Source: a virus (Duplodnaviria > Heunggongvirae > Uroviricota > Caudoviricetes). From it: 15,329 nucleotides of DNA. Positions 2,168 through 6,377 of this stretch are shown here, piece after piece. The notes beneath the pieces were generated by a model. The model was not told the DNA's origin. It did not search any database and worked only from the letters and a program-made list of their open reading frames with translations. The stretch is from the IMG/VR virus record IMGVR_UViG_2531839583_000004, positions 1-15,329 of that record. One strand, given 5' to 3'. Positions within the stretch are counted from its first letter, which is position 1, and each line of letters starts with the position of its first letter. The position numbers and the translations under genes are program-made.

Positions 2168-3217
2168 ATGATTAATACTGTAAAAATATCCAGTTGTGAG
2201 TTAATCAACGCTGATTGCCTGGAGTTTATCCAGACCTTACCGGAAAATTCTGTCGATCTGATAGTCACAGACCCGCCATACTTTAAAGTGAAGCCCGAGG
2301 GCTGGGATAACCAGTGGGAGGGCGACGATGATTACCTGAAATGGCTGGACCAGTGTCTGGCGCAGTTCTGGCGGGTACTGAAGCCTACCGGAAGTCTTTA
2401 CCTGTTCTGTGGTCATCGCCTGGCATCTGACACCGAAATCATGATGCGTGAGCGCTTTAATGTGCTGAACCACATTATCTGGGCGAAGCCGTCCGGACGC
2501 TGGAACGGGTGCAATAAGGAAAGTCTGCGGGCGTATTTTCCGGCAACAGAGCGCATTCTGTTTGCAGAACATTATCAGGGACCGTATCGCCCGAAAGATG
2601 ATGGCTATGTGGCACAGGGGCGCGAGCTAAAACAGCACGTCATGGCCCCGCTGATTTCTTACTTTCGTGATGCGCGTAAATCACTGGGAATAACGTCAAA
2701 ACAGATAGCGGAAGCCACCGGAAAGAAAAACATGGCTTCGCACTGGTTTGGTACCAGTCAGTGGCAGTTACCGAACGAGGGGGATTACAACAAATTGCAG
2801 GCGTTGTTTGCGCGTGTTGCGGCAGAAAAACATCAGCGCGGGGAACTGGAAAAGCCACACCACCAGCTGGTCAGCACATACAGTGAGCTGAACCGGCAGT
2901 ACACGGAACTGCTGAGTGAATATAAAAATTTGCGGCGGTATTTCGGTGTGACGGCGCAGGTTCCGTACACCGATGTCTGGACGCATAAACCGGTGCAGTA
3001 CTATCCAGGAAAACATCCGTGCGAAAAACCGGCAGAAATGCTGCAGCAGATAATCAACGCGAGCAGTCGTCCGGGAGACCTGGTTGCAGATTTTTTTATG
3101 GGTTCAGGTTCAACGGTAAAAGCGGCGATGGCACTGGGGCGTTGTGCGATTGGTGTTGAGCTGGAGACAGGACGTTTTGAACAGACAGTCAGGGAAGTTC
3201 AGGATTTAATCGTTTGA
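2168..3217 (+). CDS. DNA amino-methyltransferase (N6-adenine or N4-cytosine), beta-class, orphan
   Basis: 349 aa. Motif IV DPPY (LIVTDPPYF) near the N-terminus and motif I FxGxG (DFFMGSGST) near the C-terminus give the beta-class order. A central region with an HTH-like segment (LGITSKQIAEATGK) is the likely target-recognition region. No adjacent restriction endonuclease ORF. Confidence 0.9.
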   Translation: MINTVKISSCELINADCLEFIQTLPENSVDLIVTDPPYFKVKPEGWDNQWEGDDDYLKWLDQCLAQFWRVLKPTGSLYLFCGHRLASDTEIMMRERFNVLNHIIWAKPSGRWNGCNKESLRAYFPATERILFAEHYQGPYRPKDDGYVAQGRELKQHVMAPLISYFRDARKSLGITSKQIAEATGKKNMASHWFGTSQWQLPNEGDYNKLQALFARVAAEKHQRGELEKPHHQLVSTYSELNRQYTELLSEYKNLRRYFGVTAQVPYTDVWTHKPVQYYPGKHPCEKPAEMLQQIINASSRPGDLVADFFMGSGSTVKAAMALGRCAIGVELETGRFEQTVREVQDLIV

Positions 3218-3266: not shown

Positions 3267-3342
3267 GGCCCTTTAGCTCAGTGGTGAGAGCGAGCGACTC
3301 ATAATCGCCAGGTCGCTGGTTCAAATCCAGCAAGGGCCACCA
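3267..3342 (+). tRNA. tRNA with anticodon CAU (Ile2/lysidine-type or Met), including encoded CCA
   Basis: Cloverleaf: acceptor GGCCCTT/AAGGGCC, D-arm GCTC...GAGC, anticodon loop CTCATAA (anticodon CAT at 3300-3302), T-loop GGTTCAAATCC, 3' ACCA. Very close to E. coli ileX and to ileZ of Stx phages as recalled. Confidence 0.9.
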
Positions 3343-3439: not shown

Positions 3440-3516
3440 GCGTTGTTAGCTCAGCCGGACAGAGCAATTGCCTTCTAAGCAATCGGTCACTGGTTCGAAT
3501 CCAGTACAACGCGCCA
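3440..3516 (+). tRNA. tRNA-Arg (anticodon UCU), including encoded CCA
   Basis: Acceptor GCGTTGT/ACAACGC, D-arm GCTCAGCCGGACAGAGC, anticodon loop CTTCTAA (anticodon TCT), T-loop GGTTCGAATCC, discriminator G plus CCA at 3514-3516. Resembles the argU/argO type. Confidence 0.9.
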
Positions 3517-3529
3517 CGCTTATTTTTCC

Positions 3530-3554
3530 AGGCTCGCTTTGGCGGGCCTTTTTC
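3530..3554 (+). terminator. rho-independent terminator downstream of the tRNA cluster
   Basis: Stem AGGCTCGC (3530-3537) / GCGGGCCT (3542-3549) including one G-U pair, loop TTTG, followed by TTTT (3550-3553). Confidence 0.5.
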
Positions 3555-3763
3555 ATATCCGCGCCCGTTATGAAGCGCCACCGCGTTCTGCTAATGCTGA
3601 AGCCCTTCGTCAGCTGACTGATGTTGCAGATACTGATGATACTGTGAATGTGCTGTGTCTGTGTCTGGATATCGCTGACCAGGACGGTATCGGTCAGGAA
3701 GAAGAAGCGCAACTGAAGAAAATTGCGCAGGCGCTGCAGTTGCCGCTGGAGCAGTACCTGTGA
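3539..3763 (+). pseudogene. TerB-like C-terminal fragment (probable gene remnant, 74 codons, no ATG start)
   Basis: ORF begins at TTG inside the terminator hairpin and has no in-frame ATG. The translation (VLCLCLDIADQDGIGQEEEAQLKKIAQALQLP) resembles the C-terminal half of TerB/DjlA-N-type domains as I recall them. GC-rich. Confidence 0.3.
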
Positions 3764-3912
3764 AAAGTGCGCGCCTTGTGCTGGCTGTCATCCTGTTGTT
3801 TCTGGTAGTGATGGTGGATTTCACCGGACGACTGATGTCAGTGCTGGCAGATGGTGTGCTGGTGGCGATGGCGCTGATCGTGCTCCGGCCTTTACTGCGT
3901 AAATCTGAATAA
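3760..3912 (+). CDS. small hydrophobic membrane protein (50 aa), GTG start overlapping the upstream stop
   Basis: GTG at 3760 overlaps TGA 3761-3763 (GTGA). Translation VKSARLVLAVILLFLVVMVDFTGRLMSVLADGVLVAMALIVLRPLLRKSE predicts two hydrophobic helices. Below the ORF-track size cutoff. Confidence 0.35.
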   Translation: MKSARLVLAVILLFLVVMVDFTGRLMSVLADGVLVAMALIVLRPLLRKSE

Positions 3913-4000
3913 CATCACACAAAAGGCATCTGCGGGGGCCTTTGACGGGGTGTTTTTTTACGGGTCGCTGGTGGCCCTTTTTTTATTTTCAGGAGGAAGT

Positions 4001-4390
4001 ATGTCTGAACCCTTATCCGGTTCCGGCACGGCTGCGGCGCTGGGTGGCGCGACGGTATTCGGGCTGTTTACCGGGATGGATTTCGGGATTGTGTTTGGCG
4101 CGTTCGCCGGGGCGTTATTTGTGGCAACGATGCCGCAGTCACTTTCAGTCTGGCGCGTGGTGGCGCATTTTCTGGTGTCGTTTATTGTCGGCGTGCTGGG
4201 AGCGCGTGTGCTGTCAGCCTGGATTGCATCAAAAACAGGGTATGACGGTACATCGGCAGATGCGCTGTGTGCGGTGCTGGTATCGGTGGTGTCGGTGAAG
4301 ATTCTGTCGTTCATCCACCAGCAGGATATTGCATCGTTGGTGTCCGGTGTGTTCTCCCGTCTGCGGGGTGGAGGCGGTAATGTTAAGTAA
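4001..4390 (+). CDS. putative holin (multi-pass membrane protein, 129 aa)
   Basis: Strong Shine-Dalgarno AGGAGGA 5 nt upstream of ATG 4001. Gly/Ala-rich hydrophobic segments with a charged C-terminal tail. First gene of a cassette ending in an endolysin. No similarity to lambda S recalled. Confidence 0.55.
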   Translation: MSEPLSGSGTAAALGGATVFGLFTGMDFGIVFGAFAGALFVATMPQSLSVWRVVAHFLVSFIVGVLGARVLSAWIASKTGYDGTSADALCAVLVSVVSVKILSFIHQQDIASLVSGVFSRLRGGGGNVK

Positions 4391-4655
4391 CCTTCCCGGA
4401 TTACTGAATGTGGTGTTAAGCACGGTTATCGTGCTGACGCTCTTTTTTTATCGTCGTGGTGATTCCAGACATAAACCGCTGATGTCGTGGCTGGCCTGGC
4501 TGCTGATGCTGCTGTATGCCTTTGCGCCACTTTGTTATCTGTGTGGTCGCTTTCCACCCGGTAACTGGCTGGTCGTCCTGATTAACCTGGTGTTCTGCGT
4601 GCTGGTGATACGAGCACGCGGGAACGTATCAAAAATCCTTTCATTACGGAGGTGA
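4380..4655 (+). CDS. second lysis-cassette membrane protein (holin/antiholin-like, 91 aa)
   Basis: GGAGG 5 nt upstream of ATG 4380; overlaps the holin 3' end by 11 nt; stop is 2 nt before the endolysin start. Predicted 2-3 transmembrane segments. Confidence 0.5.
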   Translation: MLSNLPGLLNVVLSTVIVLTLFFYRRGDSRHKPLMSWLAWLLMLLYAFAPLCYLCGRFPPGNWLVVLINLVFCVLVIRARGNVSKILSLRR

Positions 4656-4657
4656 GT

Positions 4658-5035
4658 ATGCCCGGTAAATTCAGATTCAGTCGTCGAAGTGAGAAAAATC
4701 TGGAGGGCGTCAAACCACAGCTGGTTGCTGTTGTTCGCCGTGCGCTGGAGCTGACGGAGGTTGACTTCGGTATTACGGAAGGCCTGCGCAGTAAGTATCG
4801 CCAGAAGCAGCTGGTCGCGGAAGGGAAAAGCCAGACCATGAACAGCCGCCACCTGACCGGTGATGCGGTGGATGTTGTGGCCTACATTGGTAGCCAGGTG
4901 TCATGGGACTGGCCTCTGTACGAGAAAATCGCGCAGGCATTTAAGCAGGCTGCCGCAGAGCTGGGAACTGCCATCGAATGGGGCGGGGACTGGAAAACAC
5001 TGAAAGACGGGCCTCACTTTCAGTTGAAGTGCTAA
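4658..5035 (+). CDS. endolysin, peptidase M15 family (L-alanyl-D-glutamate endopeptidase, T5 Lys-like)
   Basis: GGAGG 5 nt upstream of ATG 4658. Conserved Zn-ligand context SRHL...DAVD...DGPHFQL (His, Asp, His) typical of M15 phage endolysins. About 126 aa. Confidence 0.85.
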   Translation: MPGKFRFSRRSEKNLEGVKPQLVAVVRRALELTEVDFGITEGLRSKYRQKQLVAEGKSQTMNSRHLTGDAVDVVAYIGSQVSWDWPLYEKIAQAFKQAAAELGTAIEWGGDWKTLKDGPHFQLKC

Positions 5036-5049
5036 TAACCAGGTGGTTT

Positions 5050-5232
5050 ATGAGCCGAAAACACTGGACACACAGAATGCCGCGAACGGCGGCGAAATGG
5101 GCACTGGTAGCGATACTGGTGCCTTTTTTCCTGGTGGGATGCGTTAGCCTGGATAAGGTGCGCCAGCTTTTCGATACGGCCTCGCAGGTCTGCGAAATTG
5201 TCGAAAGTGCCAGGCAGTGTATGCAGAACTGA
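5050..5232 (+). CDS. small lipoprotein (lipobox LVGC); possible o-spanin-like or other lysis-associated lipoprotein
   Basis: AGGTGG upstream of ATG 5050. Signal peptide AKWALVAILVPFFLVG followed by Cys; mature peptide about 30 aa with three Cys. Immediately follows the endolysin. No Rz-like partner ORF detected. Confidence 0.5.
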   Translation: MSRKHWTHRMPRTAAKWALVAILVPFFLVGCVSLDKVRQLFDTASQVCEIVESARQCMQN

Positions 5233-5319
5233 TCGCCTGTAAGAGCAGAATATTGTTGAATCTAAATTTACTTTGAACAGTGGCCCGGATGGAAAGGGCA
5301 TCTAAATAGGAGCAGAAAA

Positions 5320-5529
5320 ATGTTAACTGTAAAAGTCATGTCTCAAAATGGTGGGGAAGAGCTCCATTGCGGGCGTAGCATTGGCTATCATCCAGAGCAG
5401 CGGAGTATTGCCGTATCGGGAAAGGATGGGAAAGTCATTCTGAAAGATGGAGATATTGCTTATGTAATGAACCAAAACGCTCAAATAATATCTGTTTATC
5501 GGCCCAATAATAGTCAGAAAAACATTTGA
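5320..5529 (+). CDS. hypothetical small protein (69 aa) in AT-rich moron
   Basis: Good Shine-Dalgarno AGGAG 6 nt upstream of ATG 5320. Low-GC codon usage distinct from flanking phage genes. Confidence 0.5.
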   Translation: MLTVKVMSQNGGEELHCGRSIGYHPEQRSIAVSGKDGKVILKDGDIAYVMNQNAQIISVYRPNNSQKNI

Positions 5530-5571
5530 ATTTCGCAAGTCCAAAGTTCAGTGGTGATCGTTATCAACTAA

Positions 5572-5600
5572 TTGAAATAACAAGCTTATGTTTGTGTAAT
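5572..5600 (+). promoter_or_regulatory. candidate sigma70 promoter (TTGAAA, 17 bp spacer, TGTAAT) for the second moron ORF
   Basis: TTGAAA at 5572-5577, 17-bp spacer, TGTAAT at 5595-5600, about 50 bp upstream of the ORF starting at 5653. Confidence 0.35.
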
Positions 5601-5652
5601 TGGTGATATAGCATGTTAATGCTGAATATCAGCGTCAACATGGAGTTATACA

Positions 5653-5868
5653 ATGGTTTTTAAACACTATTACGTGAACAAAAATGCTCAGAGCAATGGC
5701 GATCATGAGGTGCATGCTGAGGAATGTTCATATCTTCCTGCTGTAGCTAACCGCGATTACCTTGGTTACTATAGTGATTGTTCTTCGGCGGTAACAGAGG
5801 CAAAGGCCAAAGGATATTCCCGGGTGAATGGTTGCTATTGGTGTGCCAATAAGTGCCACACGTCTTAA
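5653..5868 (+). CDS. hypothetical small Cys/His-rich protein (71 aa) in AT-rich moron
   Basis: GGAG 8 nt upstream of ATG 5653. Cys/His pattern (EEC...DC...GCYWCANKCH) suggests a metal-binding mini-domain. Followed directly by a terminator. Confidence 0.5.
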   Translation: MVFKHYYVNKNAQSNGDHEVHAEECSYLPAVANRDYLGYYSDCSSAVTEAKAKGYSRVNGCYWCANKCHTS

Positions 5869-5887
5869 TCAATTGTCAATAAACCAT

Positions 5888-5911
5888 AAAGGCCGCTCTG
5901 CGGCCTTTTTC
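5888..5911 (+). terminator. rho-independent terminator closing the moron
   Basis: Stem GGCCG (5891-5895) / CGGCC (5901-5905), loop CTCTG, then TTTTT (5906-5910); an upstream A-run makes it potentially bidirectional. Confidence 0.7.
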
Positions 5912-6185
5912 ATGTTAAAAAAGATTGCGGCATTACAGCAGCCCTTCACACTGAGTGGCTGCGATAATGTGAGAAATAAAAAACCGGCAGGGGAAATCCA
6001 TTGAAGATTTGCCGGTGGCAAAAAGATGGCCATGCTTTCAACCTTAGTCGCAGGGTTACGGAGTGCAACTACGAATGCTGCCGGTATATGGCTGAATGGC
6101 GTTTCAATGATGTACGTCATCTTATCTGTAAATGTTAATGATAAAAGCTCTCATTTGTGCGGGTCCTTCCGGTGGGGTGGCCTGC

Positions 6186-6206
6186 CACGGGGCGGAAGGC
6201 GCGCGG
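6186..6206. other. cosN (cohesive-end site), variant 12-nt core GGGCGGAAGGCG
   Basis: Flanking sequence ...CACG|GGGCGG......|CGCGGGTTTTCGCTATTTATGAAAATTTTCCGG matches the lambda left end as recalled. The 12-nt core differs from lambda GGGCGGCGACCT at positions 7-10 and 12. Confidence 0.6.
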
Positions 6207-6239
6207 GTTTTCGCTATTTATGAAAATTTTCCGGGGAAA

Positions 6240-6356
6240 ATCATGTCGGTACTTCTCGAACATAACTATTTGTTTTTTCTAATATCGAATCCGTAAAAGG
6301 TCCGACATGAAAACGCCTAAAAAAGTCATTTTCGGGCACTTTCATGTCGGACCCTG
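6240..6356. promoter_or_regulatory. cosB-like region: three CATGTCGG(A/T)C repeats (R3, inverted R2, R1) around an AT-rich putative IHF-bending segment
   Basis: CATGTCGGTAC at 6242-6252 (+), TCCGACATGAAA at 6301-6312 (inverted), TTTCATGTCGGACC at 6341-6354 (+); AT-rich spacer 6254-6298. Arrangement parallels lambda R3-I1-R2-R1 but with a different repeat sequence. Confidence 0.55.
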
Positions 6357-6377
6357 TGTTTGTTGTGAGACTGTTTC

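Follow-up and report, generated by a model that had tools for sequence, protein, structure and literature searches.

The question raised by this locus is how a prophage with lambda-type head genes opens its host cell when its lysis genes are not of the lambda type, and in particular which of two overlapping membrane-protein genes makes the hole in the inner membrane and what, if anything, acts on the outer membrane. The window, a stretch of 15,329 nucleotides of tailed-phage DNA carries a lambda-type set in profile matches, as had been described for its head genes: Nu1, gpA, a lambda-family portal, an S49 protease at the position of lambda C, D, E, a head-tail attachment protein at the position of lambda FII, Z and U. 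The lysis genes lie between a Q-like gene (1034-1588; phrog_753, 8e-78) and this intact packaging/head module. No Rz/Rz1 was found in 5036-6377, and the earlier view of a lysis module other than S/R/Rz holds. The cassette is nevertheless already known, as an ordinary block of lysis genes of the phiP27 type in an E. coli prophage, and the explanation that we hold with high confidence is that it belongs to the late operon of a lambdoid E. coli prophage and represents a type first annotated in phiP27, acting by the mechanism proposed below.

The cassette consists of four genes on the plus strand: hol1 (4001-4390; 129-amino acid membrane protein), hol2 (4380-4655; 91-amino acid membrane protein), an endolysin gene (4658-5035; 125-amino acid soluble Zn metallopeptidase of the M15C/LAS type) and, as the last gene, one for a 60-amino acid lipoprotein precursor with a lipobox (5050-5232). 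None of the four ORFs is disrupted, and each has a good Shine-Dalgarno sequence; the extents given in the preliminary description for the two membrane-protein genes, and for the M15 peptidase gene ending at 5035, were recovered. RefSeq names the first three products putative holin, phage holin family protein and M15 metallopeptidase. An AGGAGG lies 5 nt 5' of the ATG at 4001, and the N-terminus MSEP/MSDP/MTDP is kept in Hol1 homologues with as little as 27% identity; therefore, a longer 146-amino acid ORF from GTG 3950 is not the gene. Likewise, GGAGG lies 5 nt 5' of the hol2 ATG at 4380, and a 108-amino acid ORF from TTG 4329 was ruled out by the Shine-Dalgarno position and the conserved N-termini. 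For the endolysin, GGAGGTGA precedes ATG 4658, which sets the start at that codon and the length at 125 residues, identical to the RefSeq call; the GTG at 4652, which would give 127 residues, falls within the Shine-Dalgarno sequence, and with the start at 4658 an apparent overlap with hol2 disappears. The overlap between hol1 and hol2 is genuine and spans 11 nt (ATGTTAAGTAA). Because the hol2 Shine-Dalgarno sequence is inside hol1, translational coupling of the two genes is likely from their arrangement. Two terminator-like hairpin/T-run elements (3926-3977, plus strand) are located directly 5' of the hol1 Shine-Dalgarno sequence, the one at 3962-3977 being a stem followed by T7; HK639 has four annotated terminators at the equivalent position, and Q antitermination presumably lets transcription pass through such elements.

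Both membrane proteins match curated holin families above the Pfam gathering scores, which bears out their earlier description as holin candidates. Hol1 matched Phage_holin_8 (PF16931) over profile positions 1-121 of 121 with 82.6 bits (gathering cut-off 26.4; 3e-23) and phrog_198 'holin' at 3.5e-42, and all 32 Hol1 homologues matched Phage_holin_8. Hol2 matched Phage_holin_3_7 (PF05449, formerly DUF754) with 75.0 bits (gathering cut-off 25.4; 4.8e-21) and phrog_217 'holin' at 6e-36. NCBIfam returned no specific family. Homology to non-lysis proteins such as transporters had been named in advance as a finding that would speak against a role in lysis, and some Hol1 homologues carry the JGI name of a ThrE/YjjB transporter. 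However, the matches of this kind were insignificant: among the 32 family members, ThrE was matched by four (best E 0.12) and ThrE_2 (DUF3815) by one (E 0.46).

The two proteins also have the general features of holins. Hol1 is small, has transmembrane domains (TMDs) and a charged C-terminal tail (SRLRGGGG; SRLRGG..K), and is encoded next to the endolysin in the late operon; it further contains a Gly-rich motif, GxDxGxxxGAFxGAxF, in which Asp27 is invariant. [quoted passage not shown] Hol2, likewise small and encoded directly 5' of the M15 gene, is predicted from hydropathy, charge and AF2 to have three TMDs, N-out/C-in, the topology of class I. Its AF2 helices (2-25, 32-54 and 63-79; pLDDT 60, again a low confidence from a shallow alignment) are followed by a basic C-terminal tail (RARGNVSKILSLRR), and it has a basic loop, RRGDSRHK. 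For both proteins, the helices modelled by AF2 are consistent with the hydropathy profile and with the positive-inside rule.

Hol1 and hol2 form a fixed module, which is found together with endolysins of four unrelated families. In a sample made up of three clades of Enterobacterales phages, with repeated contigs included, hol1 was located directly 5' of hol2 in all 238 testable viral loci carrying hol2, and the same short overlap was found in 231 of them. The endolysin gene 3' of the pair belonged to M15 (107 loci), GH19 (73), GH108+PG_binding_3 (60) or Muramidase (2), and no N-terminal TMD was found in the sequences of one representative of each of the four families. Such indifference of the holin module to the kind of soluble endolysin is in keeping with a canonical large-hole holin and not with a pinholin, and the sequences thus point to a holin system of the former kind. 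The order hol1, hol2, M15, lipoprotein is the commonest architecture among relatives (33/80 and 38/80 loci). Fusions of hol1 and hol2 occur in three single-member clusters (P0018, P0092 and P0129). Programmed frameshifting was rejected as their origin: they are probably errors or mutations of 1 nt in a run of Gly codons, and in a fusion Hol2 would have to adopt a topology that is disfavoured. As a natural holin module that swaps among endolysin families, the pair is a good test system for two-component holins.

The endolysin matched PF13539 with 48.2 bits (cut-off 25; 1.6e-12) and phrog_465 'endolysin' at 3e-75. Its best structural matches in the PDB were 23ri, 8q2g and ChiX (5opz), all at about 1e-43. 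The alignment with ChiX (8.7e-43) is free of gaps over residues 4-123, and R44, H65, D72, D117 and H120 align with R47, H68, D75, D120 and H123, the five functional residues of ChiX, so that the His-Asp-His Zn ligands, the catalytic Asp and the Arg that binds substrate are all present; for ChiX, cleavage of the L-Ala-D-Glu bond has been demonstrated (PMC5778951). [quoted passage not shown] The comparison with T5 Lys that had been made earlier is also justified (PDB 2MXZ, 3e-23): the two share the fold family and the SxH..D metal motif (SKHITGDAID in T5, SRHLTGDAVD here). T5 Lys is, however, more distant than ChiX or enzymes of the 8q2g type, and its alignment contains small insertions and breaks off at query residue 117, short of the GPH motif. 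Neither a signal peptide nor a SAR segment was found in the 125 residues, in which hydropathy revealed no hydrophobic window. Similarly, the ChiWXYZ system of Serratia marcescens and YenLC of Yersinia entomophaga have a soluble endolysin that needs a holin for access to the periplasm (PMC4259817, PMC10847048). In contrast to the hol1-hol2 pair, ChiW and HolA are single holins, and these systems keep Rz/Rz1-like spanins and sit outside prophages. ChiW and ChiY were also considered as homologues of Hol1 and Hol2 and rejected, as ChiW is reported to be a lambda-S-type holin unrelated to either (PMC4259817) and ChiY and ChiZ are spanins.

The preliminary description suggested an uncommon family for the two membrane proteins and implied that the cassette is new; neither point was upheld. 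The cassette region shares 99.8% identity with ETEC chromosomes, where it is annotated holin/holin/M15, and the surrounding 1.7 kb was matched in 386 of 5426 complete E. coli genomes. The hol1-hol2 pair occurs widely among prophages and phages of Enterobacterales, for example in phiP27, mEp390, HK639, Klebsiella phage Seifer, and Yersinia and Salmonella phages, and a hol1 orthologue has already been studied genetically (PMC12571312). The Stx2e phage phiP27 (NC_003356) has the same four genes, three of them annotated (L28, L29 and L30) and the lipoprotein ORF detected by tblastn. Its cassette was annotated in AJ298298, with a genome paper in Infect Immun of 2002 as cited by PMC12571312, and a survey of Stx phages (PMC8136144) called it a 'canonical metallopeptidase endolysin + classical holin'. 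Gene families, gene order, the hol1/hol2 overlap and the site, 3' of a methylase gene and the ileZ/argO tRNAs, are the same as in the window, with about 88% DNA identity and protein identities of 84-85% (Hol1), 80% (Hol2), 97% (M15) and 88% (lipoprotein). The differences are in the flanks: phiP27 has stx2e between the tRNAs and hol1, where the window has a TerB fragment (a pseudogene, 3539-3763) and a DUF3927 gene; it has an insert of about 480 bp between endolysin and lipoprotein genes, with a minus-strand gene of 90 amino acids (phrog_36812), that is absent from the window; and its packaging genes are HNH/terminase, different from the lambda-type head genes here. In mEp390 (gp48/49), HK639 (67/68) and Seifer (gp35/36), the same two Pfam/InterPro families occur in the same order directly 5' of the endolysin gene, with the two genes in overlap or abutting and with 27-49% (Hol1) and 33-42% (Hol2) identity, but the endolysins are GH19 or GH108 instead of M15. 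The spanins differ as well: overlapped i-/o-spanins are recognised in mEp390 and HK639, and in Seifer the gene behind that of a membrane protein is annotated as an o-spanin, whereas the window has neither arrangement. As found, the cassette is of little import in itself, being widely distributed and made of parts in curated families. In relatives, however, the hol1-hol2 pair adjoins genes for AB5 toxins (Stx2e, Stx2k, LT-IIa/b and a pertussis-like toxin), and the identity of the hole-former bears on the release of these toxins.

In the mechanism that we propose, Q-dependent late transcription would read through the terminators 5' of 4001, and Hol1 and Hol2, probably translationally coupled, would accumulate together in the inner membrane. 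As a two-component holin, they would form timed, non-specific lesions large enough for a folded cytoplasmic enzyme, and the Zn peptidase released in this way would cut the L-Ala-D-Glu bond of stem peptides, an activity taken from its close homologues. The outer membrane would then be handled without Rz/Rz1, and the lipoprotein encoded at 5050-5232 may serve at this step.

For the division of roles between the two membrane proteins, a strict holin/antiholin pair is one of two live readings. In this reading, Hol2 would be the sole hole-former, with its textbook class I features, and Hol1 an inhibitor that delays triggering, as P2 LysA is toward P2 Y; the four-TMD, N-in/C-in layout predicted for Hol1 is that reported for LysA. 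In addition, no dual-start motif like that of lambda, from which an antiholin might be made, was seen in the hol1 or hol2 sequence, and an in-frame GTG at 4368 would extend Hol2 only by MEAV, which brings no positive charge. A separate second membrane-protein gene beside the holin gene is also seen in P2 (Y/LysA), P1 (LydA/LydB) and the Burkholderia P2-like phages KS5, KS14 and KL3, although the P2 and P1 proteins have no sequence relationship to Hol1 or Hol2 and the P2 gene order differs. In the Burkholderia phages, an 'antiholin' with three to four TMDs followed by a DUF754 holin has been annotated for what is described as the same gene order (PMC3091744), and the annotation of Seifer leaves the pair as 'holin-antiholin'. 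However, the published antiholin labels were guessed from gene position and do not come from experiments, and all roles in DUF754-type cassettes are positional predictions only. A text search by the Pfam and InterPro identifiers of both holin families found no experimental paper, and a paper on a Neisseria prophage holin was set aside as irrelevant to their function, since it concerns a 49-amino acid protein with a single TMD and cites P27 only for replication genes (PMC1931599).

The genetic data argue against Hol1 as an inhibitor. Deletion of the region equivalent to 4001-4390 abolished enrofloxacin-induced release of Stx2e, and the hol1 orthologue alone on a plasmid restored it (PMC12571312). 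The primers used for this orthologue match 4001 and 4390, and when they are read against the sequence the downstream homology arm begins at the base equivalent to 4391, so that the hol2 ATG was deleted as well. The published 'holin' knockout thus apparently removes the start of hol2 too, which affects how that work is to be read. Restoration of release by hol1 with both hol1 and the hol2 start deleted is unexpected for an inhibitor, although what was read out was not lysis timing but the toxin in supernatants of overnight cultures, with the gene on a multicopy plasmid, so that membrane leakiness from overexpression is possible. Furthermore, none of the 238 loci with hol2 lacked hol1, whereas a pure antiholin can usually be dispensed with and is often lost. 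A strict holin/antiholin pair is therefore somewhat unlikely in our judgement, and because hol1 alone restored toxin release without the hol2 start codon, we lean toward both proteins contributing to the hole, in which Hol2 would be the class-I-like core and Hol1 would take an active part instead of purely inhibiting.

Two other explanations concern the cassette as a whole. It might have been domesticated for the release of toxins or other proteins, like a T10SS (cf. ChiW/ChiX), and no longer serve phage lysis: the endolysin matches the Serratia T10SS enzyme ChiX, the same holin pair lies beside AB5 toxin genes in relatives, and the authors who linked Stx2e release to the hol1 orthologue argue that it does not involve lysis (PMC12571312). 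However, no toxin gene was found in the window, where the TerB fragment and the DUF3927 gene occupy the slot; the position from the Q-like gene to the lambda-type head module is the canonical one of a late operon; ChiW is unrelated to Hol1 and Hol2 (PMC4259817); and a toxin gene beside lysis genes, being the usual layout of Stx phages, is no sign of secretion without lysis. We consider this domestication very unlikely. Still more improbable is that the block is a decaying remnant whose genes are no longer functional, as might be supposed from the TerB pseudogene just 5', from the absence of an i-spanin, and from ATCC 43896, in which the adjoining terminase gene is interrupted by an IS66 element. 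Against such decay stand the four intact ORFs with good Shine-Dalgarno sequences, the intact catalytic residues of the endolysin, the full-length terminase, portal and capsid genes of the window, and the fact that this very gene order is the commonest among relatives.

The lipoprotein encoded by the last gene of the cassette has the lipobox LVG-C31 and a mature part of 30 residues that is helical, with a net charge of -1 and an invariant Cys48, and contains no Pro, unlike the Pro-rich lambda Rz1. It matched phrog_7528, the function of which is not known, but no Pfam family at E<=0.1, and there was no match to PF03245. No plus-strand ORF with a TMD, which could be an i-spanin, was found between 4900 and 6377, and the lipoprotein is thus present without the partner that a two-component spanin of the Rz/Rz1 type has. 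Nor does it resemble a unimolecular spanin of the T1 gp11 type, since it has the lipobox but lacks a C-terminal TMD and is short in its mature part. The lipoprotein gene could also be a moron unrelated to lysis, as in phage GER2 a homologue with 62% identity is found about 750 bp beyond Rz. This possibility is weakened by the 80 closest homologues on viral contigs, all of which follow hol1, hol2 and an endolysin gene and none of which occurs with Rz, and by the GC content, which falls only right after the lipoprotein stop codon. We infer that the lipoprotein is a candidate factor for the outer-membrane step, and the only candidate in the cassette.

In sister cassettes, small ORFs with a C-terminal TMD (57 and 60 amino acids; phrog_4493 and phrog_1115) sit before the lipoprotein gene. 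Their basic N-termini predict a cytoplasmic orientation, which makes a role as i-spanins unlikely, and they are absent from the window. A more far-reaching and rather improbable idea is that no i-spanin is needed: Hol1 and Hol2 would be an obligate hetero-oligomeric holin, and the lipoprotein, alone or with the small C-terminal-TMD proteins of sister cassettes, would perform the outer-membrane step in a way unlike Rz/Rz1, T1 gp11 or the phiKT disruptin. If so, the 'separated spanin' entry for phiP27 in the published spanin catalogue would be wrong. With no credible i-spanin, the cassette offers a tractable E. coli case for spanin-independent disruption of the outer membrane. The list of Kongari et al. 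(2018) gives the phiP27 homologue of the lipoprotein as an o-spanin, together with an i-spanin that was rejected as a partner here because the phiP27 insert carrying it is absent from the window. Even in phiP27 itself this i-spanin is doubtful from its sequence: it is a TTG ORF with no PHROG match and lies antisense to the 90-amino acid gene, which has one.

All three ORFs of the stretch that had been read as a non-lambda lysis cassette proved to be real. The first membrane-protein gene, hol1, extends from an ATG at 4001 to 4390 (129 aa), with AGGAGG 5 nt before the start, and its homologues keep an MSEP, MSDP or MTDP N-terminus even at 27% identity; a longer ORF of 146 aa was ruled out as hol1 by the position of the AGGAGG and by this conserved N-terminus. 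The second, hol2, extends from an ATG at 4380 to 4655 (91 aa), its GGAGG falls within the 3' end of hol1, and hol1 and hol2 share an 11-nt overlap (ATGTTAAGTAA). The peptidase gene (125 aa) starts at ATG 4658, as in RefSeq, which is a better start than GTG 4652 because the latter is part of the gene's own GGAGGTGA ribosome-binding site. A lambda-type dual start was found in neither hol1 nor hol2. Rare database proteins of 217-220 aa (P0018, P0092 and P0129) are hol1-hol2 fusions that arise by a 1-nt frameshift in a run of Gly codons, joining …SRLR to VEEAAMLSNL… (window equivalent, 4355-4380), and there is no stop in the hol2 frame over the 17 codons 5' of its ATG; these fusions are probably sequencing errors or mutations, not programmed frameshifting.

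The family matches were PF16931 (Phage_holin_8, 3.2e-23) and phrog_198 'holin' for hol1, PF05449 (Phage_holin_3_7, 4.8e-21) and phrog_217 'holin' for hol2, and PF13539 (Peptidase_M15_4, 1.6e-12) and phrog_465 'endolysin' (3e-75) for the peptidase. Some hol1 homologues carry the JGI name 'YjjB/DUF3815', and neither membrane protein showed meaningful similarity to transporters; the ThrE-type Pfam matches of hol1 homologues were insignificant, and the reading of lysis proteins thus survives this comparison. It was also correct to call the endolysin a T5-Lys-like L-Ala-D-Glu peptidase (T5 Lys, 2mxz, 3e-23), though ChiX-type enzymes are far closer: PDB sequence matches at ~1e-43 were to the phage-type L-Ala-D-Glu endopeptidases 23ri and 8q2g and to Serratia ChiX (5opz), all aligned gap-free over residues 4/5-123. 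The zinc ligands His68, Asp75 and His123, the catalytic Asp120 and Arg47 of ChiX (PMC5778951) align with H65, D72, H120, D117 and R44, respectively. The ChiWXYZ and YenLC type 10 secretion systems have this endolysin in common with the cassette, whereas their holins and spanins differ. Hydropathy analysis found no hydrophobic segment in the peptidase, which points to a cytoplasmic enzyme, predicted to need a holin.

When loci from three viral-contig clades (phiP27-like, mEp390-like and Seifer-like) were searched with profiles of both membrane-protein families, a hol1-family ORF lay directly 5' of the hol2 homologue in all 238 loci with enough upstream DNA, with the same short overlap in 231 of the 238. 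Among annotated phages, mEp390, HK639, Seifer and Rac-SA53 have the same arrangement, and the same order has been reported for Burkholderia P2-like phages, in which a 'putative antiholin' of 113-124 aa precedes a DUF754 holin (PMC3091744). Four unrelated endolysin families supply the gene 3' of the pair, namely M15 peptidase (107 loci), GH19 (73 loci), GH108 with PG_binding_3 (60 loci) and Muramidase (2 loci), and an N-terminal membrane segment was absent from all four representatives, one per family. Because the module is interchangeable among soluble endolysins, these comparisons argue for hol1-hol2 being a canonical holin that would make non-specific large lesions, not a pinholin.

Built on shallow alignments, the AF2 models have low confidence, at pLDDT 62 for hol1 and 60 for hol2; their helices agree with hydropathy and charge distribution. 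With predicted helices at 7-24, 28-42, 50-79 and 84-122, we read hol1 as having four membrane helices and both ends cytoplasmic; Asp27, which is conserved, sits at the first turn, and hol1 has a Gly-rich motif, GAFxGA. The predicted helices of hol2 are 2-25, 32-54 and 63-79, and its basic parts, the loop RRGDSRHK and the tail RARGNVSKILSLRR, are both on the predicted cytoplasmic side, so that hol2 would be N-out/C-in (class I topology, like lambda S105, with which it has no sequence homology).

The upstream gene of such pairs has been named an antiholin by position and topology (PMC3091744); the Seifer annotation leaves the role open ('holin-antiholin'). However, two porcine STEC strains in which a kanamycin cassette had taken the place of the hol1 orthologue no longer showed a rise in extracellular Stx2e on enrofloxacin induction, and plasmid-borne hol1 alone brought this rise back (PMC12571312). 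Matching the published primers to the window, we found that the downstream homology arm has the counterpart of 4391 as its first base, immediately 3' of the hol1 stop, so that the overlapping hol2 ATG (4380) appears to have been deleted too, and the mutant would in effect be a hol1+hol2 double knockout. That hol1 alone rescues such a mutant speaks for hol1 permeabilising the membrane by itself and against its being a pure inhibitor, with leakiness on overexpression as a possible alternative explanation. We favour a two-component holin system to which both hol1 and hol2 would contribute; a strict holin/antiholin model, with hol1 as a pure inhibitor, is a serious if rather unlikely rival.

Rz/Rz1 genes were not present at the cassette, and the + strand between the endolysin and Nu1 holds no ORF with a TMD. 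The last gene of the cassette, 14 bases 3' of the endolysin stop, is a 60-aa lipoprotein ORF (5050-5232); its N-region is basic, its core hydrophobic and its lipobox L-V-G-C31. The mature lipoprotein, of 30 residues, is helical, Pro-free and weakly acidic, and the lipobox Cys31 and Cys48 are invariant across 52 variants. It could conceivably be a moron, as phage GER2 has a more remote homologue (62%) located past a complete S/R/Rz cassette. We assign the lipoprotein to the cassette because GC content falls from ~54% to 36-46% immediately past its stop, because the 80 closest viral-contig homologues (80/80) come after hol1-hol2-endolysin (M15 or GH108) without Rz, and because the few Rz-bearing sister cassettes are without the lipoprotein. 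In Kongari et al. (2018), the phiP27 copy is entered as an o-spanin whose partner in a 'separated' spanin is a 64-aa i-spanin (20348-20542). From the sequence context, this two-component call seems doubtful, because the listed i-spanin ORF has a TTG start and no PHROG match, is antisense to a 90-aa gene with a PHROG match (phrog_36812), and is within a ~480-bp insert missing from the window and from the commonest architecture. In the window, an i-spanin, a defining feature of a two-component spanin, was looked for and not found anywhere near the lipoprotein gene. In sister cassettes, small C-terminal-TMD proteins of 57-60 aa (phrog_4493, phrog_1115) stand directly 5' of the lipoprotein (related loci L018, 4079-4252; L019, 3987-4169; L006, 1630-1779), and GER2 has a homologue directly 5' of Rz; they look like a lysis-cassette-associated family of small membrane proteins, which is absent from the window.

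The cassette is of the type of phiP27, an Stx2e phage whose genome paper reportedly appeared in 2002, with ~88% DNA identity and protein identities of 84-85% (hol1), 80% (hol2), 97% (M15) and 88% (lipoprotein). It is already known: the phiP27 record (AJ298298) annotates two putative holins and an endolysin, a survey of 279 Stx phages described a 'canonical metallopeptidase endolysin with classical holin' as confined to the Stx2e cluster (PMC8136144), and there is the prior genetic study of the hol1 orthologue (PMC12571312). How hol1 and hol2 share the work and the missing i-spanin are real points, but they refine a system of a familiar kind and do not make it a new one. The preliminary description was borne out in seeing a lysis cassette but not in suggesting that its membrane proteins could be of an uncommon family. 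Matches to bases 3700-5400 occur in 386 of 5426 complete E. coli genomes.

The cassette lies in a lambdoid E. coli prophage whose late region makes up the window, and the chromosomes of ETEC ATCC 43896 and 504838 are 99.8% identical to bases 3700-5400. The cassette is preceded by DUF968 and RusA genes, a Q-like antiterminator (1034-1588, phrog_753), an N6/N4 DNA methylase (2168-3217) and two tRNA genes, at 3267-3342 (tRNA-Met(CAT) by ARAGORN, tRNA-Ile (ileZ) in RefSeq and phiP27) and 3440-3516 (tRNA-Arg(TCT) by ARAGORN, argO in phiP27); the same pair stands before stx2e in phiP27. In relatives, genes for Stx2e, Stx2k, LT-II or pertussis-like toxins sit either in the slot from the tRNAs to hol1 or immediately 3' of the endolysin. 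In the window this slot is without a toxin gene and contains a TerB-like fragment (3539-3763; a RefSeq pseudogene with its N-terminus missing) and a DUF3927 gene (3760-3912; 50 aa, two TMDs, phrog_1470 'TciB-like'). Directly 5' of the hol1 ribosome-binding site are two terminator-like hairpin/T-run elements (3926-3977), which transcription presumably passes with the help of Q antitermination; four terminators are annotated at the equivalent spot in HK639. The head genes 3' of the cassette are lambda-type, as had been stated: Nu1, gpA, a lambda-family portal, an S49 protease (lambda C position), D, E, a head-tail attachment protein (lambda FII position), Z and U. An IS66-family element splits the gene for the terminase large subunit in the 99.8% identical ATCC 43896 prophage (locus L002, 7699-10701); in the window that gene is intact (641 aa). 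Between the lysis cassette and Nu1, a region of low GC (36-46%; 5233-6377) contains two small conserved ORFs of unassigned function, at 5320-5529 (69 aa, phrog_3909) and 5653-5868 (71 aa, Cys-rich, phrog_4298), and a bidirectional terminator-like hairpin at 5888-5908.
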